From NCBI RefSeq assembly GCF_024502345.1, contig NZ_JALDNN010000001.1: 64,000 nt of DNA. One strand, written 5' to 3'. Below are positions 14,770 through 29,009 of this stretch, piece after piece. Numbering within the stretch: position 1 is the first letter of the stretch; the number at the start of each line of letters is the position of its first letter. The DNA is from Escherichia coli. GTDB taxonomy: Bacteria > Pseudomonadota > Gammaproteobacteria > Enterobacterales > Enterobacteriaceae. The translations under genes were made by a program, and so were the position numbers. The notes under the pieces were generated by a model. That model was not told the DNA's origin. It made no database searches and worked only from the letters and a program-made list of their open reading frames with translations.

Positions 14770-16773
14770 TCATCCTTGTTGCTGAAGCATGGGGAATAAT
14801 TGTTCGCACAGCAAAACGCAGTTATTCATTGCTTCTACCCGTGCCTCGCTTTCTGTATTACGAAATTGTCCCAATACATGTGCCAGCCGATAAAAAACCA
14901 CCGCGGTGAGGTCATTCGCCAGCAACTCTGCCTGACCAATAGCACTCTGTTCCTGATAGCGCCAGCCGTTATGGAGCAGTTGAATAAGTAATGCCTGGCA
15001 GCGCATCAGCAACTGATGAGCAGTAGACGGCACAGGCAGAACGCTGACAGAAGGTAGTGATGCCACCACAGGCGCAGTTTCTGCGTCCAGCGCCCAGGCA
15101 CGAGTCTTTGTCATCATTACCTGTGGTTCCAGTGTCAATTGCCCATCAACAAAACTGACAAAGCCAGAAACCAGACACACGGGGTCGTCTGTTTGTTGCA
15201 AAAGCGCCGCCATGCGTTCAATGGCATAAGGCGCGCTGGCTGAGGCTGGCAGTGATAACGTCAGCAGATTATCTTCACCTTCGCCGCTGATTACCTGCGC
15301 ATCCAGCGTCTGGCGGCTGCTATCCCAACCGAGCGAAATACACTCAGCGACCGGCAGAATAAATAAGTTATCGACCTGATTAAGAGGCCGTATGCAGGAG
15401 GGGGGACGCTGGCGTAAATATTCCCGCAAAGCCACAATGCCCGGCTGGCGTAACGGCGCGCTCAACATTTGCCAGGCATCAGGCGACAGCGGCACAACGC
15501 TGCTTAAGCGGTTGCGGGTAGCTAACAGCAGCTCGCCATCGGCACTGCGTTTTGCTGCTTGTGAAACAATTTGCCCACCCGCCAGTGCGCCAGCCTGAAA
15601 ACTAAACAGCCGACGCGTAGCTGCCGGTGAGTTTTCCTGTTCACTTCGCGGCCAACTGCGCGAAAGGTGCAAAATACTGCCGGTGTCGGGATCGGTAAAC
15701 CAGATGCGTAAACCATAATGCTCAATATCCTGCCAGCAACGCATACCTAAAGACACCAGCCGCAGATGATCAAGCTTTGCTTCTCCGGCAATGCCAGAGC
15801 CAACGACCGTGCGCCACGGCACAGGAGGAACTTCACCAACACTGTCGCGCCGCGCCATCTCTTGTGCGCAATTTAATCGACTGTTTAATGCCGCAAGCTG
15901 ACGTAAGCATTCTCCGGCATGATAGTGGCTGGCGCGGGCGTGGAAGGCATCAACGCTGGCGCGCAGTTGCCGTAGCGATTCACTCACCCATCGCCAGTTG
16001 CAGCGTTCCGCTGCTTGCTGCGCGCGGCTGAAAGCGGCCTCGTAGTGAATAAGCGGCTGGCTGATGCCGCCCAGCCATAATGCCTGGCTTAGTTGCTGAA
16101 CATATTGACGACACGTTTTGCCTTCTTCGCTGGCAAACAGATCGTCAGATGATGTGACGTGTTCGCTGCGCATCTGCCAGATTAAATGAGTCAATTCCGG
16201 TTGCTGCGCTTTTGCCTGGACAAAGGCCTGTACTGCCAGTACGACATGTTCGCAAAGTGTGCCTTCAATACAATCACAACGGGCGAAACGAATGCTGCTA
16301 CGGGAATAAAAACGCACATCGCTCATCGGTAAGCGGGCAGAGGGAATTTCGCCCGGCGTACAGAACAACTCAATGGTGATGCCTTTAGCGACCAGCGCCT
16401 GCGCGCGTTTGCGGGTGGCATCGGGCAGGGTAGCCAGTTCTTCCAGCCAGATTGCCGGATCCCACTCTTCTTCTTTTTCTGTGGGCTGGACGGTGGCACA
16501 AAGTCGTTGATAACTTAACACCAGCATCACGCGATGACGGCACATGCCGCTGGCCCCGCAGCTGCACTGAGCCTCTTTCAGTGCCTGGCCGTTCGCCAGC
16601 TGGGTACGGACACCGTCACTGAAGGTGGCGATTAAAGCGCCGTTCTCATGGCTGATCTCCGGGACGTTGCCATTTTCCAGTTCCTTAAGACTGCGCTTAA
16701 CAAAACCGGCATTGCTTAACGCTGTCAGGGCCTGCGGTGTCAGTTCTAATAATTCCGGACGTAGTGAATTCAT
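14770..16773 (-). CDS. yehQ: SWIM zinc-finger domain protein
   Basis: CxC...CxH SWIM motif (QCSCGASGMCRHRVM); start chosen at ATGA overlap with yehP stop. Confidence 0.8.
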   Translation of the reverse strand: MNSLRPELLELTPQALTALSNAGFVKRSLKELENGNVPEISHENGALIATFSDGVRTQLANGQALKEAQCSCGASGMCRHRVMLVLSYQRLCATVQPTEKEEEWDPAIWLEELATLPDATRKRAQALVAKGITIELFCTPGEIPSARLPMSDVRFYSRSSIRFARCDCIEGTLCEHVVLAVQAFVQAKAQQPELTHLIWQMRSEHVTSSDDLFASEEGKTCRQYVQQLSQALWLGGISQPLIHYEAAFSRAQQAAERCNWRWVSESLRQLRASVDAFHARASHYHAGECLRQLAALNSRLNCAQEMARRDSVGEVPPVPWRTVVGSGIAGEAKLDHLRLVSLGMRCWQDIEHYGLRIWFTDPDTGSILHLSRSWPRSEQENSPAATRRLFSFQAGALAGGQIVSQAAKRSADGELLLATRNRLSSVVPLSPDAWQMLSAPLRQPGIVALREYLRQRPPSCIRPLNQVDNLFILPVAECISLGWDSSRQTLDAQVISGEGEDNLLTLSLPASASAPYAIERMAALLQQTDDPVCLVSGFVSFVDGQLTLEPQVMMTKTRAWALDAETAPVVASLPSVSVLPVPSTAHQLLMRCQALLIQLLHNGWRYQEQSAIGQAELLANDLTAVVFYRLAHVLGQFRNTESEARVEAMNNCVLLCEQLFPMLQQQG

Positions 16774-17906
16774 GACTGAAGATTCTCCGCAAGCCATGAT
16801 GCCAGTTCGCCCGGTGTCATGGCGGCTATTTGTGCGCCGACATTAACCAGCGCCTGGGCCGTATCGCGGTCATAGCAAGGCGTTGCTGTGCTATCGAGCG
16901 CCGCCAGTCCCAGCACTTTGATGCCGCTCTGGACACACTTTTTCACCTGATGCGTCAGCAATGATGATGAACCCCCTTCGTAAAAATCGCTCACGAGGAT
17001 AATGACGCTTTTTGCTGGTTGTTCAATAAGTTGCCGACCATATTCCACGGCACTGGCGATATTGGTCCCGCCGCCCAACTGTACTTTCATTAATAACTCT
17101 ACCGGATCGGCAACGTCTGCCGTGAGATCAACGACGCTTGTGTCAAACGCCACCAGATGGGTACGAATGCCGGGTAACTGCCACAAACAGGCCGCCATCA
17201 CCGCAGAGTGGATCACCGAGTCCACCATCGATCCGCTTTGATCAACCAGTAAGACCAGTTGCCATTGTTCACTGTGGCGTTTAATGCGGCTGTTAAAGCG
17301 GGGGGATTCGATATACAACTTGCCGTGTTGCGGGTGCCAGTGTTGCAGGTTGGCGCGCAGAGTACTTTTGAAATCAAAGTTTCGCGCCAGTGGAATAAAT
17401 GAGCGGCGACGGCGATCGCGGACACCAGAAAAAGCCTGACGAACTTCCTTTGCCAGTCGAGCCATAATTTCTTCAACAACCTGGCGCACTATCCGGCGGG
17501 CGGCAGCCAGTACTTCGGGGTTCATCAGATGTTTGGTGTGCAAAACGGCGCGTAGCAGACTTTCAGAAGGCTGCATACGTTCCAGCACGTCGAGATTCGT
17601 CACCACATCTTCAATGCCGTAGCGCAGTACGGCATCGCTTTCCAGCCGCTCAATCACCTGTTGCGGAAACAGCGTGTGAATACTGTTGATCCACTCAGGG
17701 GTGGTGAGATTTGAGCTACCTAATCCACCGGAACGTTCACCACGCTGGAGCCGTTCAGGATCGCGCCCATACAGCCACTCCAGCGCGTGGTCTATCTGCC
17801 GGGCGTTGTCATCCAGCCCACAAAGCGTCGTTTCTGCCGCTTCGCCAAGAATTAATCGCCAGCGTTGTAGCTCACGGGTGGTCAGAAGATCGTTCAGTTC
17901 AGACAT
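16770..17906 (-). CDS. yehP: von Willebrand factor A (VWA) domain protein
   Basis: MIDAS motif DQSGSM; ORF trimmed to MSELNDLL start, 5 bp from yehM stop. Confidence 0.85.
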   Translation of the reverse strand: MSELNDLLTTRELQRWRLILGEAAETTLCGLDDNARQIDHALEWLYGRDPERLQRGERSGGLGSSNLTTPEWINSIHTLFPQQVIERLESDAVLRYGIEDVVTNLDVLERMQPSESLLRAVLHTKHLMNPEVLAAARRIVRQVVEEIMARLAKEVRQAFSGVRDRRRRSFIPLARNFDFKSTLRANLQHWHPQHGKLYIESPRFNSRIKRHSEQWQLVLLVDQSGSMVDSVIHSAVMAACLWQLPGIRTHLVAFDTSVVDLTADVADPVELLMKVQLGGGTNIASAVEYGRQLIEQPAKSVIILVSDFYEGGSSSLLTHQVKKCVQSGIKVLGLAALDSTATPCYDRDTAQALVNVGAQIAAMTPGELASWLAENLQS

Positions 17907-20178
17907 GGAAAACTCCCCAGTTTTGCAGCGATGCCAGTGCCTGCTGTTCGAGTTGTTGATGATGTGCAATGGCTTGTGGTGGACAATGCAACGGCATTTG
18001 CAGCGCCGAAACGGGAAGTTGCGCCAGTTGATAATGCTCAAGCACCTGATGCGCCAGCGTCCCGCGTTCTCGTGGTGGTAGCCAGGCCATCGCCGCGCGT
18101 AAATCGGGCAGGGCATTGATAAAATTGGCATCACTCAGTTGATTTAAATGACTGCTGAAACCGGCGATAAATGCCGGCTGACAGGCCAGTTGATGGCGGG
18201 CCAGCGCCAGCAAACCGTGCAGCGCTTCGCCGGATTGTGCCGGGGATAACTGCGCCAGCATCGTCAGCGCCGCTTCGGCACTAGCGTTGGGATGTTCCAG
18301 ACGCATCAGTGCGCCAAGAGCCGCGCCGCGATCCAGCGCCGGGGCATGGATTGCCTGACTGCGTCGCTCCAGTAAGGCTACCGCCGCAGAAAGAGAAACG
18401 CCGGGTAAATTAACGCCGCTATATAGATCGCGCAGGATATGGCAAAGCGCCTGCCAGCTATGCATGTGAGCGTGAAACTCCTTTTCATCTGGTCTGCCGT
18501 TAGATTCACACAGCCACAGCGTGCGATCGATAGCCGCGCATAACGTCGTTTGTAATATCTGCGCGCCTTGCATACCGCTAATTTCATCCAGCCGCCATAA
18601 GGCATATAGCACTTCCAGCGCCTGGCCCATTTCGGCAAATTGATTTTCCTGGGCGATTAATAATGTGAGTTGCTCCAGTAATTGTTGACTGAAGGACGCC
18701 AGACCCGCTAACGCCGCCTGGCTAAGACATGTGGTGATACTGCCGATTCCACCCGCGTCCAGCATATCGGTTTCTAATTTATGGCGTGCGGCTTCCTGGA
18801 GTGTGGCACCAAAGCAGGCGGCCTCAATCAATGCCGCATGCTGGCTAAGCGGGCGGGTTAATTTCCAGCGTTCTTCACCGTTGCCTGCAAGTGTCAGTGT
18901 GCTTCCCTGCTGGCGTACAATCCCTGGGATCTCCAGTATTGCCAGCCGATGTAACACCTGACTTTGCGCTAGTCCATTGGGGTTAAAGCGATTTAAGGTA
19001 AGCTCCGCCGGAAGAGAGATTGCGGTACGTTCCAGTTCGCAGGTGACATCTTTTGGCAGAGGCGGTTGTGGCGTAGAAGGGGCAAGTTTACCGAATCCGT
19101 CACCCGCTAATGTGTCTATCAACGTTAGCAGAATCGGATCGGTATCGGGATGAATAACGCCGCGATAGCTCCATGGCAACGGCGCATTCAGGGATTCTTT
19201 AATCAGCGAGCCTGCTAAGGCATCCAGCCAGTCAGTGCGTAACGGTAGTGTATGACCGCGCAACTGTGCCAGCGCCATCGCATGCAGATGAGCGGCAGCC
19301 ATATCCGCGGTCGAAGCAGGCAAGTGGTGTTGGCGCAAACGGGTAAGAACCGTTTTTAGCAGTTGTTCTCCCGCCTGCTGTAAGCCCCACTGCCAGCACC
19401 AGCTTTGCCAGACCGGGGCAGGCATTCCTGAAAGGTATCCTGCCAGCACATCAAGGCGCTTTTCACTGTAGGGTGTGAGATAACAACCTGTAACGGCATC
19501 TGCCAGCGAGGGCAATTCTGGCTTGTTAATGTCCTGCGGACATTCGCGCCACATTTTTGCCAGTGCCGGAGCGTGCCAGCCACCGCAGACGACTAACACG
19601 TCGCCATTGTTTTGCTGCATCGCCCATGCAATCCAGCGGGCCATGAAGGCTTCGCGCTGACGATTGAGAGCATCTCCGGGGGAATCGCCCCGCAGTTGTG
19701 CAAAATAGTGCGCCAGCGCAGAGGGTAATGCAGTTTGCTGGCTTTCATCTTCGAATAAGTGATCCCACAGGGTATCGCTGTTATCCATGCGGGTGGCACG
19801 CAGCAGTAAGGTCTGGCTTTCATCTTGCGTATCAGGCGAATCGTTCTCTTCTTCACTCTGCGCCCAGCAAGGCAAATCGATGAAGTAAGTTTATGCCTGA
19901 ATACGACGTGCGGCTTGTAGCGCCTGCCACTCCGGCGAAAATTCAGCAAATGGCGTCCAGGCACCACGCCCGGGGGCCGCACCGTCCTGATACTGGCAAT
20001 AACTGTAAATAGCTACCGGAAGCTGGTGGGCTAAAAACAGTTCGTCTACCCGGTCATTAAAATCAGCCGGGCCTTCAATCAACACGTATCGTGGCCGCTG
20101 GCTTTCGATTAATGATTTGACCAGCCGGGCGCAGGCCGGGCTATGATGCCGGATGCCGACAATTAACGGCTCGCTCAT
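17899..20178 (-). pseudogene. yehM: yehM interrupted by in-frame TAA (codon ~97 of 760)
   Basis: ORFs 19891..20346 and 17899..19875 share one frame, separated only by TAA at 19891..19893; total span 2280 nt = 759 aa + stop. Confidence 0.75.
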
Positions 20179-20188
20179 GCATCTTTCC

Positions 20189-21277
20189 TCACGGCAGGCG
20201 GTGGCGGGCTTGATAATAAGCCTGCCAGTGAGCTTCTTTATGTGTGGCGACACGCTGTTCGAAGTAACGGCGCAGACGAGCGCGATCTTCTTCGTTATCT
20301 TTGACGATGGTTCCGGCAATACAGTCCACCAGATCGGCTGGCTCACCTGCGCGATTCGCTAAAAACCAGGCGCGGACGCCCACAGCGTGGGCCACGTTCA
20401 CGGCTTCAGCGGTGGACATAATCGCTGTTAGTGTATCCATTGACGTTTTCTTTTCGCCGTTGGCACGCAGATCGCGGAAGGTGCGGACCAGTAACTCCAG
20501 TACCGCGTCAGGCACTTTATGCGGAATACCGCTATGGGCCAGCAAACGCGCCGAAGCACTGGCGACAAGCTCCAGCTCCTGGGCGAAATCCATAATCGGA
20601 AAGACAGTTTCAAAATCGAAGCGACGCTTTAGCGCAGCACTCATTTCATTGACGCCGCGATCGCGGGTATTGGCAGTGGCAATAATATTAAAGCCTTCTC
20701 GCGCATAGAGCTGACTGGCTTCACCAGTGAGTTCCGGCACCGTCATCACCCTGTCAGAAAGCATACCTAACAGACAGTCTTGCACTTCCAGCGGTGTACG
20801 CGTTATCTCTTCAAAACGGACGATTTTGCCGTCGCGCATTCCCTGGTAAAGCGGGGCAGGGACCAGCGCTTCCGTTGATGGACCATGATTGATAAGCAGG
20901 GCGTAGTTCCAGCCGTACTTGATTTGATCTTCGGTAGTAGATGCGCCGCCCTGGATGGTTAACCCGGCATCGCCGCTAATAGAGGTTGCCAGTAATTCAG
21001 ACAGGAGAGATTTTGCGGTGCCAGGTTCCCCCACCAACATCAAACCGCGTCCGGTGGCAAGAGTGACTAACATACGTTCGACAGCGGAGGGACTAATCAC
21101 CACTTTACGGCTAATATTTTGCGCGCTATCGCCAAGGATAAAAGCACGGGCCGCAGGCAAACTTAACTGCCAACCGGGCGGGCAAGGTGCGTTATCATTT
21201 TGTTTTAATTTTGCCAGTTCATCGGCGTATAACACAGCAGCAGGCGGACGCTGCAGATGATTATTCTGCGGTGACAT
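20189..21277 (-). CDS. yehL: MoxR-family AAA+ ATPase
   Basis: Walker A GEPGTAKS, MoxR/CbbQ-like core; ORF trimmed to MSPQNNHLQ (362 aa). Confidence 0.85.
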   Translation of the reverse strand: MSPQNNHLQRPPAAVLYADELAKLKQNDNAPCPPGWQLSLPAARAFILGDSAQNISRKVVISPSAVERMLVTLATGRGLMLVGEPGTAKSLLSELLATSISGDAGLTIQGGASTTEDQIKYGWNYALLINHGPSTEALVPAPLYQGMRDGKIVRFEEITRTPLEVQDCLLGMLSDRVMTVPELTGEASQLYAREGFNIIATANTRDRGVNEMSAALKRRFDFETVFPIMDFAQELELVASASARLLAHSGIPHKVPDAVLELLVRTFRDLRANGEKKTSMDTLTAIMSTAEAVNVAHAVGVRAWFLANRAGEPADLVDCIAGTIVKDNEEDRARLRRYFEQRVATHKEAHWQAYYQARHRLP

Positions 21278-21385: not shown

Positions 21386-21471
21386 AATAAAAAAACCTGC
21401 TGGTGAGGCAGGTTCTTTTATTTACTATTTTCAGGCCTAACACCACAGCCTGTGCAACATCGTGTTCCAAC
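21386..21471 (-). ncRNA. candidate Orz-like antitoxin sRNA (copy 1)
   Basis: minus-strand promoter (-35 TTGCAA 21501..21506, 17-bp spacer, -10 TATAAT 21478..21483), intrinsic terminator at 21386..21413; 5' end complementary to zor 5'UTR 21618..21638. Confidence 0.55.
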
Positions 21472-21477
21472 GAACGA

Positions 21478-21528
21478 ATTATAACCACGGCTGGACCCCG
21501 TTGCAATTAAGATAATGAGATTTATAAT
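21478..21528. promoter_or_regulatory. divergent promoter pair sharing one palindromic -35 hexamer TTGCAA (copy 1)
   Basis: plus strand: TTGCAA-16 bp-TATAAT (21523..21528); minus strand: same TTGCAA-17 bp-TATAAT. Confidence 0.55.
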
Positions 21529-21709
21529 CCTGACTGTTGGGACGTTGCGCCGGATCGAACCTATTTCAAGTCCTGGCTACCGGACGGGGGGTGCTGCAGG
21601 TAGTGCCCTGATCCGGAGTGCAACATCGTGGTCCAACATACGTAAACCAGTATCGACAGGCAGTGTAAGGGTAAGGTGCTGGTGTTGCGCTCCTTAATAA
21701 GGAGAGCGG

Positions 21710-21799
21710 ATGGACTCGCTGACACAAAAGTTAACCGTGCTCATTGCTGTACTGGAGCTATTAGTGGCTCTGTTACGGTTGATTGATTTGTTGAAGTAA
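21710..21799 (+). CDS. type I toxin, 29 aa MDSLTQKLTVLIAVLELLVALLRLIDLLK (ZorO/ZorP-like)
   Basis: hand translation; GGAGAG RBS; single hydrophobic helix; ~174-nt leader from predicted TSS; near-identical copy 608 bp downstream. Confidence 0.7.
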   Translation: MDSLTQKLTVLIAVLELLVALLRLIDLLK

Positions 21800-21820
21800 C
21801 GGGCAAATTGAAACGCATCT

Positions 21821-21846
21821 AAGGGGGAAAACCGCTTCCCCCTTTA
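21821..21846 (+). terminator. intrinsic terminator of toxin mRNA copy 1
   Basis: GGGGGAA-loop-TTCCCCC hairpin followed by TTTAATAAA. Confidence 0.7.
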
Positions 21847-21995
21847 ATAAAATGATTACTGTTTTTATTAATTCATCATATAACTCATTTTTATTTATAA
21901 ATTCATCGATTTTATATTCAACGCACCATTTGACCGGGATGTGAATATTTATGTTGGGCTATTGGCAAAAAATATCTGGAAAGTAGATCGCAGAA

Positions 21996-22079
21996 AATAA
22001 AAAAACCTGCTGGTGAGGCAGGTTCTTTTATTTACTACAGTGACGCTAACTTGCTGATTGTGCAACATTTCGTACCAAC
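21996..22079 (-). ncRNA. candidate Orz-like antitoxin sRNA (copy 2)
   Basis: same promoter/terminator architecture as copy 1 (-35 22109..22114, -10 22086..22091, hairpin 22006..22022). Confidence 0.55.
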
Positions 22080-22085
22080 GAATAA

Positions 22086-22136
22086 ATTATATCCATATCC
22101 ACACTCCATTGCAATTCAGTGAGTGAGATTTATAAT
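22086..22136. promoter_or_regulatory. divergent promoter pair sharing palindromic TTGCAA (copy 2)
   Basis: TTGCAA 22109..22114; plus-strand TATAAT 22131..22136; minus-strand TATAAT (rc) 22086..22091. Confidence 0.55.
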
Positions 22137-22317
22137 CCTGCCCGTTGGGAGGTTGTGCCGGATCGGACCAATTTTAAGTCCTGGCTGCCGGACGGGTGGT
22201 GCCGCAGGCGGTGCCCTGATCCGGAGAGCAACGTTTCGTACCAACATACGTAAACCAGTATCAACAGGCAGTGTAAGGGTAAGGTGCTGGTGTTGCGCTC
22301 CTTAATAAGGAGAGCGG

Positions 22318-22407
22318 ATGGACACGCTGACACAAAAGTTAACCGTGCTCATTGCCGTACTGGAGTTATTAGTGGCTCTGTTACGGTTGATTGATTTGTT
22401 GAAGTAA
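22318..22407 (+). CDS. type I toxin, 29 aa MDTLTQKLTVLIAVLELLVALLRLIDLLK (ZorO/ZorP-like)
   Basis: hand translation; differs from copy 1 by S3T; same RBS and leader structure. Confidence 0.7.
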   Translation: MDTLTQKLTVLIAVLELLVALLRLIDLLK

Positions 22408-22516: not shown

Positions 22517-22834
22517 TTATTCTATTTCTTGGTTGAATATATTCTGTAGTTCACGATTAAAAATTGCTATTACAGTTTCAGGTGATTCACCTCGTAATTT
22601 CCGCTCATCAATACACTCATCTCTTATATAAATCAACGCATCATTTATTAGCGGGTCAGCATCTTCTCGATCACGTTGATGAAATGTTGGATGTAGCCGG
22701 AATCGCTCCAGTCGATAGACGGAACCTGTAAATAATTCAGAGCATTTATGGATCTCAAGTCTGAAGGAAAACGGATCTTCAGGTACAGGGACCTCATAAT
22801 CGTAAATAGCAACTAGCTCTTTTTGCACGATCAT
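22517..22834 (-). CDS. yehK: hypothetical protein YehK
   Basis: 105-aa ORF in syntenic position. Confidence 0.7.
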   Translation of the reverse strand: MIVQKELVAIYDYEVPVPEDPFSFRLEIHKCSELFTGSVYRLERFRLHPTFHQRDREDADPLINDALIYIRDECIDERKLRGESPETVIAIFNRELQNIFNQEIE

Positions 22835-22894: not shown

Positions 22895-25102
22895 TTAATG
22901 GAAAATGACGTCAGGTGCGCTTAACGCCTCACTCAAATCAAACACATCAAGTTCGGCAAAAGTGACGGATTTATTGTCACGGTACACTCGAAGAGAACGG
23001 AAGCTCATTAGCGCTTTGCTATCAACATTGTAGTGGTTAAAACCGGGTGAAAACTTAAGGACCAGCCGGTACTCGCCCAGGTCATAGACAAATGCATCCT
23101 CATAGCCTGACTCCCAGCCTTTGTATCGCATTCCCATAAGCTGCCCAACGGTAGCGGATTTACCTTCCCAGCGAGTCAGGCTGTTACTGGTTGACTCGTC
23201 AGGTGTGAGCAGCACCGTGCACCGCGCCAACTGGCGAAAAGGCGGCATAATTTCGTAATCGGCAAAAAGCTGTGCAAATTCACTGCGCATTTCTACTGTC
23301 ATTTCTAACGGGTGGGCAATGCCAATCAGAGCGTCCGCAGGCAGGTCAATTGGCTCATCTTGCGCATTGCAGAACTCCCCCTCTGCGGCCACACGAAAGG
23401 CGTTGAGTAAACAACGCGGTTCATTTGCCGGATAAGCCCCCCATATTAATCGCTGGGTAACCAGACGGGTAAAGGGATGATTAACAAACAGAGAATGAAA
23501 ATCTGCCAGCGACCAGCGTCGGGTGGTACGTAGGGCCGTTTCAAGACGCGGGAGCAGGTTTTTGCTCACCTGAGTGGCATCTTTTTTTAGCCCTTTTAGT
23601 CGGGCCAGTGCCTCGGGCGCTTTCAGTTGATCGTCATCGGCGCGCAACCGGGGAACGCTTTTCTGGCGAACGTTTTGCTGATCAAAGATAACCGGGTTGA
23701 GGTTTTCATCGAAGCGAACGGTAAACTGCCGGGGACCAAAATCAAAACTCAACGCCTGCGGATCATCAAGGCCCAGGGTTGGGACTAATCTGTCCGCTAG
23801 CTCTTCCTGGCTTAGCCCGCGATTTTCTGCGACCACCTGAAGAAATTCCGCCGCGTTATCACGTAAGGGGCGGGATTTCGCCCGTTGCGATATATGATGC
23901 AGCTGTATCAGCGCCATATCATTATTCATCAGGGTAAGGATGTTCAGGCCACTGACAGCACGGGCAGATTTGCCTTCTTGTGGCCAGCCGAGGATCTGTG
24001 TCGTTAGATCCCGTGCCGTGCTTTCGTCACCAAAGAGACTTAACGCCAGAAATGCCCAGTTGTCTTTTACGGGGGCACCAGCTTGTTGCCACGCAGTGAA
24101 GAGATCCCAGGCAAAAGCTGCCAGCGTTTGTGGCTGGCAGAACGTTTTCAGTTGTTCCAGCCCGCTATAAAAACGTCCCCCCTGGGTAAAGCGCAGCATT
24201 TCGCCGATAATTTCCAGAGCGTCATCGGTAACAGGTTGATTATTAGTGATAAGGCGCGGCCTGGACCACATTTGCGGATGCCAGAAATCAGGGGCTTTTG
24301 GAATGCGTGCCGGGTAAATCTCTATTGGACTCTGTTTAAGTAATTGTTCCAGGGCAGGCCATAGATCTGTACGCTGCCAACGATTGGCTACAGTTTGTAG
24401 CAATTCGCCATGCCCATGTTCGTAAAGTAAACGCAGGGCAAGTAATGCAGCTTCGCTTTTATCGCTAGATTTGGTGAAGACAAGAGGGATAAGTGCAGTA
24501 GCCGTATGTTCCGGCCATTGTAAAATCCACTGGCGAGCCAGATTACGCTGGCCCGCAAAACGCTGCCAGCAGCTTTCCTCTGCCAGAGAGAGATGCTTAC
24601 GCAGTCGGAGATCGAATTCGTTATAGGTTTCTGAGCGATAACCATAGCCATAATCCTCGTCCTGATACTGCAATGTCACTACCAGAGGATCACTCTCATA
24701 ACACCGCGCAATAAACTGGCGTGCAATCACCACCTCAGTCGCATATTCCAGCCCCTCTTGTTGGACGATTTCGTCGAGCAACTGTTGGCTGTCATTTTGC
24801 GCGATACAGGCTAGCGCCGCCATTGTCCGGGGCGGGATTGAGGGTTTGTGTTCGCCGATCAAGTTGATGGCCTGCGTGATGGCGGACTGCCACTCCAGTG
24901 AAAAATTTTCATAACGCCAGACAATGTTTTTTTTCTTCTCAGCTTTTTGTAGCAATTCATCACCCAGTGTCTGAATGATGCTTTCAGTGATAACAGGCAC
25001 TGGTTCGCCCGGCCAATTGCGATGGCTGAGTGGTGTTTTACCATTTTTATATTTCAGTTCCAGTTGGGCGTTATCAGCCAGCCACGGTAATTCCTTGTCC
25101 AT
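22895..25102 (-). CDS. yehI: DUF4132-type protein, shortened paralog of MolR
   Basis: 735 aa; C-terminal region clearly paralogous to MolR (FHSLFVNHPFTRLVTQRLIWGAY vs FQLFLVEHPLVRHLTRRLIWGVY); starts 10 bp after molR stop. Confidence 0.75.
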   Translation of the reverse strand: MDKELPWLADNAQLELKYKNGKTPLSHRNWPGEPVPVITESIIQTLGDELLQKAEKKKNIVWRYENFSLEWQSAITQAINLIGEHKPSIPPRTMAALACIAQNDSQQLLDEIVQQEGLEYATEVVIARQFIARCYESDPLVVTLQYQDEDYGYGYRSETYNEFDLRLRKHLSLAEESCWQRFAGQRNLARQWILQWPEHTATALIPLVFTKSSDKSEAALLALRLLYEHGHGELLQTVANRWQRTDLWPALEQLLKQSPIEIYPARIPKAPDFWHPQMWSRPRLITNNQPVTDDALEIIGEMLRFTQGGRFYSGLEQLKTFCQPQTLAAFAWDLFTAWQQAGAPVKDNWAFLALSLFGDESTARDLTTQILGWPQEGKSARAVSGLNILTLMNNDMALIQLHHISQRAKSRPLRDNAAEFLQVVAENRGLSQEELADRLVPTLGLDDPQALSFDFGPRQFTVRFDENLNPVIFDQQNVRQKSVPRLRADDDQLKAPEALARLKGLKKDATQVSKNLLPRLETALRTTRRWSLADFHSLFVNHPFTRLVTQRLIWGAYPANEPRCLLNAFRVAAEGEFCNAQDEPIDLPADALIGIAHPLEMTVEMRSEFAQLFADYEIMPPFRQLARCTVLLTPDESTSNSLTRWEGKSATVGQLMGMRYKGWESGYEDAFVYDLGEYRLVLKFSPGFNHYNVDSKALMSFRSLRVYRDNKSVTFAELDVFDLSEALSAPDVIFH

Positions 25103-25111
25103 GCTCTTTCC

Positions 25112-28100
25112 TTATTCAAACAGGGCTTCAATATCGTTAATTAGCTCGCTGGCGGTGATGGCATCGAGTACGGAGAGCTGCGCTTCCTGTGTTGAATTAC
25201 TCCCCCAGCCATAGCTTTCCGCTTTGCCTTCCCATAGCCACAGCTTGCTTAAGAGCTGCTCAGCGCTAAGTTCGGCTGGTGACATACCCACTGCAAAGCC
25301 TTCATCGATTTCCATGATTAACGACCAGCGGCCCAGAGGTTTGATCATCCAGCCGATCCAGCCTCCATCCTGTGGTTCGCCCTTTATCCAGCCTTTATTC
25401 GCCAGCCCCATTACCCGACCGCTCGGGCATTTTCTGCTTGCCCAGCGGGTCAGTTCGCTGGCATTGCGCTCGGTTTCTGTCAGGGCGTAACTGTTACGGT
25501 CGAGCTGGCGGAACGGCGGTAGCAGTTCGTAGTCGGCAAAAAGCTGCCCAAATGCGGCGGCATCCGTCGGTGATATTTCCAGAACGTGAGGAATACCAAC
25601 AGAGATATCGCCTTCCGGCAGGGTGAAAAGATCATCGTCAGCGGTGCTGTAGCTGTTATCTTCCGCTACGCGAAAGCAAGCCAGTAGCTGGTTTTCGGCG
25701 CTATAAACACCCCAAATCAGACGGCGGGTTAAGTGGCGAACCAACGGATGCTCAACCAGGAAGAGCTGGAAGTTTTCCGGCGACCAGCGGCGGCGCAGGC
25801 ACATGGCGGATTCCAGCCTTGCTACCTGCTGGGCGGCGACGGTACGCGCATCTTTTTTCAGCAATTTGTAGCGGTTAACCGCATCGTTCGCCTGTGATTC
25901 ATCATCGCTTTTATTGGGTTTAGGTAAGTCTTTCAGGCGGCTGCCGGAAACATCACGCACAAACGGTTTTAAGGTTTCATCAAAGCTGACGGTGAACTGG
26001 CGTGGGCCAAAATCCAGCAGCAACGAACCGTTATCATCCAGACCGAGATCCGGTGCTAACCGATCTTCAAGCTCCGCCACTGTCAGTTCGCGACTTTCGG
26101 CAATGTCGGCAATTTTCTCTTTCGCCCGCTCCTGTAATGCTTTGAATTTCAGTTTCTGGGCAATGCCGTTAAGCTGCATCAGGGCGATATCACTACCGAT
26201 AGCGGCGAGAATATCCAACCCAACGGTGGCGCGTTTATGCTGAGATTCGCCAGGCCAGGCGCGGATTAATGGCGTCAGTTTGCGGGCGGTGTCATCGTTG
26301 CCGAGAACACCTAACGCAATGAACGCCCAGCTTTCTTTCGATGGCGCGCCCGCAGTCAGCCAGGCGGTAAACAGATCCCAGGCAAATTCAGCCAGTGAGT
26401 CGGCGGTACAGGCATCTTTCACCTGCAATAATCCCGGATACAGAGCCTCTTCCTGAGGGAAGCGGAGCATTTCACCGAGGTGCTGGAGTGCGCTATCGGG
26501 CAGTGATTGGGCGTTTGCTTTTAATACCGGGCGCGTCCAGAGCGATGGCTGATAAAAGGCCGGAAGAGTGGGGATTTTTGTCGGGTGATTATCTAAGGGA
26601 TCGAGCGCAAGCAGAGCGTTCACCGCGTCTGTTACTTCCGGCTGGTTATAACGCCGGGCGATTTCTTGCAGTAATGGCTGATGACCATTTTCGGTAAGCA
26701 TACGCAAGGCAGCGCGGGCGTTATCCTGTGCTTCACCGGCTTTGCCGAGCGCCGCAGGCAGCAGGCCGGTAAGGGCATGTTCCGGGTATTTCAGCAGCCA
26801 GGTGCGGGCGTCTTGTCGTAGGGTTTTGAGTTTGTTGAAGGCGCGGGCGACGGCAGGAGCTAGCTCACTCGCTGCGAAGTAATTCGTGATGGGCAAGGCT
26901 TCCTGCGGATAGCGTGTAATTGAGTTAACTAAACCAGGTAAACCTTTGAGTCCAAAATGTAACATGGCGTATTCGGTATCGGTATGTGGAGATAGAGTAA
27001 GGGCATTCCATGCTTTTACTGCTTTCTCCAGCGGCAATGTTGTCAAAATCCCCAAATGCCAATAATGCCCGGTAGGTGAATGAAACACCTTAAATTCACT
27101 TATTAAGGTTGAATAATCTTCATTTAGCCATGCCTCAACTACCGCTTCGGGAGCTTTAATATATGTACCAGCGATCCGTCGTTGAAAACCCATCCTTGCC
27201 AACAGGTTGGTAGTACTTTCTTCATGGCTAACCGTGATGTGTTGTGAATACCAGATATATTTCGCCAAAAGTTGATTACTGATTTCTTCTGTCATATAAC
27301 AGATTGGCTCAATGCCTAATGGCGCTAAATCCAGCACCGGAATCGGCGATTTTTTCTTTTTCGAAAGCCATGGTGGGGAGACTACTATGGCAGGCAGTAG
27401 ATCGGCGCAGGCATGGTTTGAGGGCTGTGTCAGTTGTTGCTGGCATGATTTCAGTACGGCAACTGCGGGTGTCGAGAGCCAGGGAAGGACCTGTTCTGCC
27501 AGTGCTGGTTGTGAGATAAGCATTGTCATTAGCATAATGCGCCAACTGTTCTCTTCTTTTTGCCCAAGAAGTTCCGTCAGTGCCGCCATTGCTGCATGTG
27601 GGAACGCAGCAATGGCTTTCGTCATCCGATCGTGACAGCGTTTAGTTTGCCCGGCTACACGTATAAGCAGTGTCAATGCGACCGGATGATTGATATGACG
27701 CAACACATCGGCGCAGTAGTCACTTGCGGCATAGGGAGCAAATCGGGGCAGGGCTGCAACACCTTGCTCCTGTAATACGGTGGCTGACCATATCGCACCA
27801 CAATAGTAATCATCAAAAATGGCATATGGCTCGTGATATTTTTCTAATGAGGCAAGAATGTGCTCATCAGTCGCCACTATTTTTAACCACTCAAGCGAGG
27901 GTAATTTTTTTTGCCCCAGTAGACGCTGGGCAATTTCATGTGCAATTTCTGGTTTTTCGGGTAATAACAAAGCAATTAATGGTTGCCGCCATTCTGGAAT
28001 ATGTGGAATTGCGGCAATAAGTTTTTGTGCACATTTTTGCCAGAGAGACTCTTCCGCCAGTGATAAATGTTTACGTAGGCGTAATTCAAATCTGGAATAT

Positions 28101-28906
28101 TGCTCCAAGTAGTTAGGTGCAATGCCAGACGGCAGAATAATAATGACATTATTCGCATAATCCCATTCAATATCAATCTGTTGAAGGTGTATTATTACAT
28201 CAGTAGCATATGCCAGACCGCCTTCCTGGACGATCTGATCCATAACATCCTCACGCACTTTATATCTTGTGCATTTCATTTCAAGTGCCGTGAGTACAGC
28301 CATTACTGGTGATGGTAACTGTGTTGTTTTCAGGCCGTCGATCTGACTGATCGCCTGGGCGACGGTGTTTTGCCATTCTAAAGAACAGGCGCTGAAGTCA
28401 AATGTGGCTGTTTTATTATCCCGTTGCGACACACTACAGGCTAAGCGACGTAAGTGGGTCAATTTGTCTGCTTGCTGAACAGGAACTTCGGGAAAGCGGC
28501 GATGGCTTAACGTGGTGTGTACAACTTCGGGCGGAAAAACGACAGCAATATCTTTCGCCAGCCACGGTAAAACAGCATCTGTATTTTTGTCAGCCGCACG
28601 GGTTTCTGCTACGAAAGAGGGTTGTTCCTGAATAATGGTGGATAAGTCCGCTACCTTGAGAGAGCCCGTTACCGTTTGGGAAGGTTGCAAAGAATTATCC
28701 TTCGCTTGCTCCATATATCCCTTCTTCACCTTCTCCGCAATCAGCTTCAGTTCCGCTTTTGCCGCCGCTGCAGCATCTGCAAAGCTTTTTACCTGACTTT
28801 GCCCGTTAGTGCCGACTTTACCCCAGTTGATATGCAGCTCGTTGTCTTGCTGCTCCACCGCCCAGAATTTATGTGATTTTTCGTCCTGATAGATATAACT
28901 CTTCAT
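25112..28906 (-). CDS. molR: WGR-domain / DUF4132 protein MolR, intact 1264 aa
   Basis: N-terminal WGR-like motif (KFWAVEQQDNELHINWGKVG); internal duplicated modules; single uninterrupted ORF. Confidence 0.8.
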   Translation of the reverse strand: MKSYIYQDEKSHKFWAVEQQDNELHINWGKVGTNGQSQVKSFADAAAAAKAELKLIAEKVKKGYMEQAKDNSLQPSQTVTGSLKVADLSTIIQEQPSFVAETRAADKNTDAVLPWLAKDIAVVFPPEVVHTTLSHRRFPEVPVQQADKLTHLRRLACSVSQRDNKTATFDFSACSLEWQNTVAQAISQIDGLKTTQLPSPVMAVLTALEMKCTRYKVREDVMDQIVQEGGLAYATDVIIHLQQIDIEWDYANNVIIILPSGIAPNYLEQYSRFELRLRKHLSLAEESLWQKCAQKLIAAIPHIPEWRQPLIALLLPEKPEIAHEIAQRLLGQKKLPSLEWLKIVATDEHILASLEKYHEPYAIFDDYYCGAIWSATVLQEQGVAALPRFAPYAASDYCADVLRHINHPVALTLLIRVAGQTKRCHDRMTKAIAAFPHAAMAALTELLGQKEENSWRIMLMTMLISQPALAEQVLPWLSTPAVAVLKSCQQQLTQPSNHACADLLPAIVVSPPWLSKKKKSPIPVLDLAPLGIEPICYMTEEISNQLLAKYIWYSQHITVSHEESTTNLLARMGFQRRIAGTYIKAPEAVVEAWLNEDYSTLISEFKVFHSPTGHYWHLGILTTLPLEKAVKAWNALTLSPHTDTEYAMLHFGLKGLPGLVNSITRYPQEALPITNYFAASELAPAVARAFNKLKTLRQDARTWLLKYPEHALTGLLPAALGKAGEAQDNARAALRMLTENGHQPLLQEIARRYNQPEVTDAVNALLALDPLDNHPTKIPTLPAFYQPSLWTRPVLKANAQSLPDSALQHLGEMLRFPQEEALYPGLLQVKDACTADSLAEFAWDLFTAWLTAGAPSKESWAFIALGVLGNDDTARKLTPLIRAWPGESQHKRATVGLDILAAIGSDIALMQLNGIAQKLKFKALQERAKEKIADIAESRELTVAELEDRLAPDLGLDDNGSLLLDFGPRQFTVSFDETLKPFVRDVSGSRLKDLPKPNKSDDESQANDAVNRYKLLKKDARTVAAQQVARLESAMCLRRRWSPENFQLFLVEHPLVRHLTRRLIWGVYSAENQLLACFRVAEDNSYSTADDDLFTLPEGDISVGIPHVLEISPTDAAAFGQLFADYELLPPFRQLDRNSYALTETERNASELTRWASRKCPSGRVMGLANKGWIKGEPQDGGWIGWMIKPLGRWSLIMEIDEGFAVGMSPAELSAEQLLSKLWLWEGKAESYGWGSNSTQEAQLSVLDAITASELINDIEALFE

Positions 28907-29009
28907 CCGCGTTTCCTGTATTTATATCCAGTTATAAGCGGATGCTAGCAGTTAATGAAAAAAATTAAGAGCGTTGAACAAACAAGAAAACAACTTTAGG
29001 AATTTATAA

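Follow-up and report, generated by a model that had tools for sequence, protein, structure and literature searches.

The chromosomal stretch analysed here, 64,000 nucleotides of Escherichia coli contig NZ_JALDNN010000001.1 (assembly GCF_024502345.1; hereafter the window), carries the adjacent genes molR and yehI, and raises the question of why its yehI encodes 735 amino acids (aa) when that of K-12 encodes 1210. A sequence-only reading of the locus had described molR as one uninterrupted open reading frame (ORF) of 1264 aa with a WGR-like N-terminus and internally duplicated modules, and had taken yehI for a shortened paralog at a site made prone to recombinational deletion by its repeats. We found yehI to be a real shortened paralog, which has lost 1425 bp in frame between two 11-bp sites in a single clone. 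MolR and YehI are components of a five-gene cassette that is preceded by a conserved LexA box. As a whole, this explanation was given a probability of about 0.75.

The molR-yehI locus

When the 6012 bases containing both genes (22895-28906) were used as query against complete E. coli genomes (n = 5,426), the DNA matched the chromosome between metG and yehK in 5421 of them. The chromosomal order is metG - molR - yehI - yehK - zor/orz - yehLMPQ, that of an ordinary E. coli region, and relatives are annotated at the same place with a DUF4132 protein (molR) and yehI. The neighbourhood of zor/orz and yehLMPQ described earlier was seen again as Rfam RNAs, 29-aa ORFs and Pfam matches (Table 1).

The window molR was confirmed as a single ORF; an identical protein is present in NCBI, and it is a member of the 1264-aa allele class. 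The Pfam search located a WGR domain at residues 8-69 (PF05406; E 8e-18, 64.7 bits, gathering cut-off 22 bits) and DUF4132 at residues 988-1173 (PF13569; E 7e-51, 173 bits, cut-off 27 bits), and in the 735-aa YehI DUF4132 alone (residues 479-663, 159 bits). No further domain was found in MolR or YehI by Pfam or NCBIfam, including any DNA-binding regulator domain such as a helix-turn-helix. The NCBIfam scan gave matches only at the level of WGR and generic AAA, far under the cut-offs, and the sole match in a PDB sequence search with MolR was to WGR in a Bacteroides protein (2ra8) that is itself uncharacterised.

The K-12 state given by the sequence-only reading was correct. In MG1655 molR is annotated as 'frameshifted; internal stop' and yehI is intact with 3633 bp (1210 aa); a K-12 YehI of likewise about 735 aa, which would have left no truncation to explain, was looked for and is not what K-12 encodes. 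The MG1655 locus has the same genes, order and neighbours as the window (metG upstream; yehK and yehLMPQ downstream) at ~95-96% protein identity, whereas the decay is reversed: molR and yehQ are broken in K-12 and intact in the window, whose yehI is short by 475 codons and whose yehM carries a nonsense codon.

Full-length YehI shares 37% identity with MolR over ~1185 residues, so the proposed paralogy stands, as does the loss of 475 codons. The missing WGR domain had been counted with the truncation and does not belong to it, since in all strains the YehI sequence begins to align only at about residue 110 of MolR; YehI of E. whittamii and Klebsiella likewise lacks WGR. Absence of WGR is thus a feature of every YehI and not of the window allele. 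Because the identity between the paralogs is only 37%, the 90%-identity protein cluster containing MolR (21,639 members), which also lists 1210-aa YehI sequences, is not homogeneous. The two genes are on the same (minus) strand, 9 bp apart and with no terminator-like site between them, which suggests that they are co-transcribed.

A microhomology deletion in yehI

The closest complete genomes were NCTC9064, MLI023K1/K2 and PRO_A-1412-6M-A, which are 99.9% identical to the window and in which the 6012-base query spans 7438 bases. Compared with these, exactly 1425 bp (475 codons) are missing from the window yehI, in frame. In pairwise BLAST the window splits at 24559-24569 into two pieces that overlap by 11 bases, corresponding to two sites of the parental gene, yehI nt 534-544 (CTGGCAGCGTT, …C-W-Q-R-C…) and nt 1959-1969 (CTGGCACCGTT, …V-W-H-R-F…). 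The sites, both of which were read base by base, are separated by exactly 1425 nt, share their codon phase and are identical at 10 of 11 positions. Since the upstream variant was retained in the window, the crossover can be placed in the shared CGTT (4 bp perfect). The product joins K-12 YehI residues 1-~181 to ~657-1210 and is read through to the native stop, so that the part corresponding to residues ~182-656 is lost and the 1210 residues are not covered collinearly. Such 10/11-matching 11-bp end-points are the signature of replication slippage or illegitimate recombination, and by one of these routes, acting at the microhomology, yehI would have lost the 1425 bp between the sites.

A query of 241 bases centred on the junction, for which coverage of at least 80% was required, was found in 0 of the 5,426 complete genomes, each of which matches one half per place. 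The exact 735-aa YehI is present in NCBI (WP_060659351.1, KUG75173.1, KUG75877.1 and MCQ7034325.1) and three independent assemblies encode it, namely GCA_050022275.1, GCA_001484085.1 and the Logan assembly of SRR24000611; over 11-21 kb these agree with the window at 99.99% identity. Identity of the protein on three independent assemblies establishes a real deletion, restricted to a single clone that is small and rare. The usual length of YehI is 1210 aa in K-12 and species-wide. Across E. coli, yehI was present in 5330 of the 5426 genomes and at least 80% complete in 5223 of those; large yehI truncations are uncommon (~2%) but have precedent.

Structure prediction located the loss within the fold. 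MolR and YehI are alpha-solenoid proteins; in the YehI models helical hairpins are stacked between ~160 and ~915, and an alpha/beta domain makes up the C-terminal end. The predicted local distance difference test score (pLDDT) in AlphaFold was 79 for residues 1-1200 of K-12 YehI and 82 for the truncated YehI, in which only the junction residues 179-186 fell below 50. According to the models, the deletion removes ~22 helices from the middle of the solenoid, the least confidently modelled and least conserved part, and spares the N-terminal module together with the conserved C-terminal half, DUF4132 included.

Could the short yehI be an assembly artefact, a collapsed repeat hiding a full-length gene? 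The end-points do have a short repeat in common, which at 11 bp with one mismatch is far too short for assembly collapse, and the same protein with its flanks recurs in the three assemblies, one contig being seen in four samples; an artefact is scarcely credible. Nearly as remote is homologous recombination between duplicated modules or between molR and yehI at a structurally prone locus, the origin favoured by the sequence-only reading. The paralogs are adjacent and in the same orientation, and shortened relatives exist: a second in-frame deletion allele, MolR of 1162 aa (P0029, 43 contigs), lacks 102 residues upstream of DUF4132 (…PDSAL joined to MQLNG…), and Escherichia sp. E1V33 has a shortened or chimeric gene at the molR position (L011 8456-11485). 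However, internal duplication in MolR and YehI was sought by self-BLASTP, DNA self-BLAST and hhalign among five segments of a 14-sequence alignment, and no sequence duplication was found: self-BLASTP returned the self-match only and the hhalign probabilities were below 1%. The comparison of molR with yehI DNA that had been called for gave three common stretches of 49-143 bp with 67-82% identity, the 143 bp being at 67%, and any repeat-like property would be limited to the helical-repeat (HEAT-like) architecture of the models. Moreover, both end-points lie within yehI, partial yehI occurs in only ~2% of genomes, and intact yehI contains 119 pairs of 11-mers with at most one mismatch, against 36-72 in shuffled sequence, so that the end-points used are unexceptional microhomologies.

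A functional, possibly selected 'mini-YehI' would agree with the frame being kept through to the native stop, with retention of the family's best conserved part, the C-terminal half, and with both retained modules being folded in the AlphaFold model. Against it, 67 of the 119 comparable pairs are in frame, which makes the in-frame state weak evidence of selection, and the junction residues are those modelled worst. The allele is also limited to one clone, in which the partner gene yehM is knocked out, and the neighbouring yeh fimbrial operon has received two insertion sequence (IS) elements, of which IS1 at least is absent from the sister strain, a picture of general decay. We hold a functional mini-YehI, selected or not, to be decidedly unlikely. 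The deletion in the window is ordinary clone-specific gene decay.

In E1V33, the N-terminal ~510 residues of the gene at the molR position are 44% identical to MolR, while the C-terminal part (residues 770-1264) is 94% identical, which suggests a deletion or a recombination between paralogs in that lineage.

MolR and YehI in a five-gene cassette

Gene context indicates that MolR and YehI are not stand-alone regulators and are instead components of a five-gene cassette made up of a DUF4132 protein that usually has WGR at its N-terminus, the MoxR-type AAA+ ATPase YehL, the DUF5682 protein YehM, the VWA protein YehP and the SWIM protein YehQ. All five families are adjacent and co-oriented in the window, where two of the reading frames are damaged, yehM by a stop at codon 96 and yehI by the loss of 475 codons. 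One subfamily of the MoxR AAA+ ATPases is named after YehL (PMC3893208), and in the window an AAA_5-type domain in YehL was found together with a neighbouring VWA gene, yehP (Table 1).

For the distant gene context, plasmids were searched by tblastn with the C-terminal region of MolR, the conserved one; homologues of 25-56% identity were returned, and six distant loci were inspected. The five families were adjacent and co-oriented in four of these, from Sinorhizobium, Streptomyces, Bacillus mycoides and Iodobacter. The Sinorhizobium order is AAA - DUF5682 - DUF4132 - VWA - SWIM, with the DUF4132 gene nested within the operon; the Iodobacter cassette contains a pair of DUF4132 genes, of which one is interrupted by IS elements, and adjoins a type I restriction-modification system. 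WGR plus DUF4132, the architecture of MolR, is found in the proteins of Sinorhizobium and Streptomyces, and the Bacillus protein is without WGR, like YehI. Judged by this gene order, the cassette is conserved in Proteobacteria, Actinomycetota and Bacillota.

In Escherichia and Klebsiella, two or three tandem DUF4132 paralogs precede yehLMPQ. The third paralog was taken from five loci, all Escherichia or Klebsiella, that were returned by a contig profile search with the MolR/YehI alignment, the patterns of which are specific to enterobacteria; a word-indexed homologue search with MolR and YehI was saturated by E. coli alleles. The DUF4132 family comprises 8,422 representatives (50% clustering, E <= 0.001; used for family size and extent of conservation only), typically of 1100-1300 aa, and its C-terminal half is the most widely alignable and best conserved part.

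The cassette resembles the MoxR/VWA pairs RavA-ViaA, CoxD-CoxE, NorQ-NorD and CbbQ-CbbO in that the MoxR AAA+ protein YehL is encoded together with a CoxE-like VWA protein, YehP. Unlike these pairs, it adds DUF5682, SWIM and one to three WGR/DUF4132 solenoid proteins. Residues 8-69 of MolR match the same Pfam WGR family as PARP1/2/3, in which WGR recognises DNA breaks (PMC6294510), and molR for its part counts as DNA-damage inducible (PMC6590174). Unlike those enzymes, MolR is without an ADP-ribosyltransferase catalytic domain and YehI is without WGR; nucleic-acid binding by bacterial WGR is putative.

The solenoid itself gave weak matches. Among known structures, the models matched only HEAT/ARM solenoids, and weakly: TM-scores with scaffolds such as karyopherins, CAND1 and Integrator subunits were ~0.12, and MolR and YehI differ from these in having no sequence-level repeat and a C-terminal DUF4132 alpha/beta domain, for which no informative match was obtained. 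No Pfam HEAT match was obtained with the E. coli proteins, and that of the Bacillus homologue to HEAT_2 was sub-threshold. Domain and structure searches found no enzymatic fold in MolR or YehI and no effector-like fold (nuclease, protease, pore, NADase). In the literature no functional study of yehI, yehLMPQ, DUF4132 or DUF5682 was found, nor any publication on an interaction of the five cassette proteins.

A LexA box upstream of molR

The sequence upstream of molR contains a LexA (SOS) box with the core CTG-N10-CAG (Table 1), on which, as on the nonsense codon in yehM, the sequence-only reading was silent. A search with the 20-mer LexA consensus allowing three mismatches misses this box, which has four; it was found by reading the sequence. 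In K-12, E. whittamii, Escherichia sp. E1V33, K. oxytoca and K. grimontii the leading DUF4132 gene is likewise preceded, at the corresponding position, by a CTG-N10-CAG box; the loci of the contig profile search that supplied the third paralog were used in this comparison too. In enterobacteria a conserved LexA box thus precedes the cassette. A published list of genes under LexA control includes molR as one whose SOS box is known (PMC6590174, Table 1, after Fernandez De Henestrosa 2000 and Courcelle 2001), and the molR promoter is activated also by BglJ-RcsB (PMC3950696). In the DdrO DNA-damage regulon of Deinococcus, the DUF4132 gene DRA0166 and the WGR gene DR2173 are strongly de-repressed (PMC8533742).

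Sequences similar to the LexA boxes of the respective host phyla also precede the plasmid-borne cassettes of Bacillus mycoides (GAACATACGTTT, L014 9709-9720) and Sinorhizobium (GAACAGGCGATGAAC, L012 5384-5398). Each would occur by chance with a probability of ~3%; that of Sinorhizobium lies ~690 bp away from the first gene, and neither was relied on.

From these elements a tentative mechanism may be drawn, which we consider possible and somewhat short of an even chance. DNA damage would lift the LexA repression of molR-yehI, and the solenoid proteins would then serve as adaptors or sensors that bring a target to a YehL-YehP AAA+/VWA remodelling machine, MolR using its WGR domain as a nucleic-acid-binding head and YehI acting as a WGR-less second adaptor.

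Decay of the cluster across E. coli

The yehI deletion is one of many lesions in this cluster. The annotated state of molR-yehI-yehK-yehLMPQ was compared at ten loci, an evenly spread sample with relatives and the window, and nine of ten E. coli loci had at least one annotated lesion; SFE8 alone was fully intact. molR is broken and yehQ has an internal stop in K-12 MG1655; NCTC9064 and MLI023K1 have a yehI frameshift in a run of G6 that has become G7; O157:H7 E32511 has a stop at codon 243 of the third paralog, a fragmented molR and a stop at codon 510 of yehM; 400625 has a yehK frameshift; 14EC007 has a stop at codon 138 of yehM; and O22:H8 RM10809-3 has a yehM frameshift. With Q96* in the window, four independent yehM lesions were counted, namely stops at codons 96, 138 and 510 and one frameshift.

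The G7 run of NCTC9064 (L001 6543) and MLI023K1 (L018) corresponds to G6 in the window and K-12 (window ~23430-23440). A product matching this frameshift, of 1066 aa (P0008), occurs on 15 contigs; either real slippage or a sequencing error in the homopolymer may lie behind the G7 allele.

In the window, the yehM nonsense codon occurs in the same clone as the yehI deletion, and the whole cluster is therefore most likely out of action there. Apart from CAA->TAA at codon 96, the window yehM is identical to the intact gene of the sister strain MLI023K1, and yehM is split in the gene calls of an independent assembly of this clone (L003) as well. Import of the stop from an O157-like allele was ruled out, as the O157 stop is at codon 510 and that of 14EC007 at codon 138.

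A comparable natural disruption of the same region in a successful lineage is documented in sublineage L1a of sequence type 131, where the blaCTX-M-15 transposon TnMB1860 is inserted in the metG/DUF4132/yeh region of 184 isolates (PMC9334617). That case is an insertion of a resistance transposon, in contrast to the microhomology deletion and point nonsense mutation of the window, and its presence in 184 isolates shows that the genes are dispensable in nature. Between intact alleles, the ratio of nonsynonymous to synonymous substitution rates (dN/dS) was 0.15-0.22 for molR/yehI, 0.11 for yehM, 0.03 for yehL and 0.014 for metG, indicating that the genes are constrained by purifying selection in the long term and that the lesions are recent events on terminal branches. 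Their frequency may reflect conditional dispensability or selection for loss.

Several observations weigh against the explanation as given. The truncated YehI is in frame and both sides of its junction are predicted to fold, so its loss of function is what we infer. The putative link of MolR and YehI to YehLMPQ is drawn entirely from gene neighbourhood, and two of the six distant plasmid loci, those of Rhodococcus and Acetobacter, have a solo DUF4132 gene among toxin-antitoxin genes without the cassette. The window has a two-unit zor-orz insert and ~1.2 kb between yehK and yehL, which makes SOS control of yehLMPQ no more than putative. Finally, some of the frameshifts counted above lie in homopolymers and may be sequencing errors, which does not apply to the nonsense codons.

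Two other functions were considered for the genes. The cassette might be an anti-phage or anti-mobile-element defence system, the frequent inactivation then being the usual turnover of defence genes. It is plasmid-borne in four phyla or classes, it adjoins restriction-modification in Iodobacter, solo DUF4132 genes lie among toxin-antitoxin genes, the sensor-like paralogs vary from one to three copies, and the lesions at nine of ten loci are recurrent and independent; MoxR-VWA pairs also occur in described conflict systems, and Pfam bpMoxR gave a weak match (E 0.001). Set against this, none of seven proteins (MolR, YehI, YehK, YehL, YehM, YehP and YehQ) matched a defence model of PADLOC-DB 2.0 at E <= 0.01, the site is fixed on the chromosome and near-universal (5330/5426 genomes) and under purifying selection, and no effector-like fold was found. 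A defence role is accordingly improbable in our estimate. We also consider it unlikely, to the same degree, that the cassette is a horizontally mobile, DNA-damage-triggered system whose WGR-solenoid-DUF4132 proteins, varying in copy number, detect nucleic acid that is damaged or foreign and pass the target on to a MoxR-VWA-SWIM machine, frequent knock-outs then reflecting fitness cost or conflict dynamics and not mere neutrality. That MolR is a transcription factor regulating molybdate metabolism, as its historical name and records of a 'MolR family transcriptional regulator' have it, is very unlikely. It is true that YehP is a CoxE-like VWA protein and that a Mo-Cu enzyme of other bacteria is matured by CoxD/CoxE; however, only WGR, a helical solenoid and DUF4132 were recognised in MolR and no DNA-binding regulator domain, molR is a pseudogene in K-12, and the gene is embedded in an AAA+/VWA cassette. 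The cassette reading, with decay of yehI in one clone, was preferred over these.

Neighbouring genes and insertion sequences

The features of the region are collected in Table 1. No domain was found in YehK by Pfam, NCBIfam or PADLOC. The zor-orz pair is an insert between yehK and yehL and not a member of the cassette; NCTC9064 is short by ~931 bp there and so has one unit, and MLI023K1 has both.

Table 1. Coordinates of genes and sites of the molR-yehI-yehLMPQ region in the window
Feature	Position	Strand	Basis
LexA (SOS) box AACTGGATATAAATACAGGA, core CTG-N10-CAG; ends 7 nt upstream of molR ATG	28914..28933	-	sequence reading
molR, intact, 1264 aa; WGR N-terminal, long helical region, DUF4132 C-terminal	25112..28906	-	ORF
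yehI with 1425-bp in-frame deletion, 735 aa not 1210; DUF4132 kept	22895..25102	-	ORF, BLAST
Deletion junction, coding orientation CTGGCAGCGTT	24559..24569	-	from yehI nt 534-544 and nt 1959-1969
yehK, 105 aa, 60 bp downstream of yehI	22517..22834	-	ORF; annotated yehK in relatives
Two tandem zor-orz type I toxin-antitoxin units	21389..22407		Rfam RF02083, 99.9 and 88.8 bits; 29-aa ORFs
ZorO/ZorP, 29-aa ORFs	21710-21799, 22318-22407	+	ORFs
OrzO-P RNAs	21389-21464, 21999-22072	-	Rfam RF02083
yehL, MoxR-type AAA+ ATPase (YehL subfamily), 362 aa, intact	20189..21277	-	Pfam AAA_5, E 1e-33
yehM (DUF5682), pseudogene, CAA->TAA at codon 96 (Q96*), stop at 19891-19893	17899..20178	-	sequence comparison
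yehP, VWA (CoxE-like), 378 aa, intact	16770..17906	-	Pfam VWA_CoxE, E 4e-72
yehQ, SWIM zinc-finger protein, 667 aa, intact	14770..16773	-	Pfam SWIM, E 7e-8; 667-aa call also in L003/L004

On the other side of the locus, an IS1 of 768 bp (33929-34696) interrupts the fimbrial chaperone gene yehC and is flanked by a 9-bp target duplication (CAGGGAAAC). It is absent from NCTC9064 and MLI023K1, and short-read contigs of the same clone end inside IS1. An IS903-like element of 1057 bp (36319-37375) lies in the fimbrial usher gene yehB, with 18-bp inverted repeats (GGCTTTGTTGAATAAATC), a DDE_Tnp_1 transposase ORF at 36351-37319 and a 9-bp target duplication (GGTGCGAGC); it is absent from NCTC9064, and the MLI023K1 stretch ends before the insertion site in yehB. 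The yeh fimbrial operon has thus been hit twice, and the clone is accumulating lesions in this neighbourhood.

Implications

The genes, their domains, the pseudogene state of K-12 and the SOS box were already known, and the truncated allele had been deposited as WP_060659351.1. The deletion itself matters little, being a clone-specific lesion in a non-essential gene. Of moderate interest are the by-products of its analysis, namely the conserved five-gene cassette, its LexA box, likewise conserved, a paralog number that varies, and the frequent independent knock-outs. If the cassette were a mobile damage-triggered system, the double lesion of the window would be one more case of selection for loss. 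molR, a gene with an SOS box, still carries the misleading name 'molybdate metabolism regulator'. Since lesions of the cassette recur in natural E. coli, and K-12 has them as well, K-12 is ill suited to a search for the function of the cassette, and strains with an intact locus, such as SFE8, are preferable for functional work.

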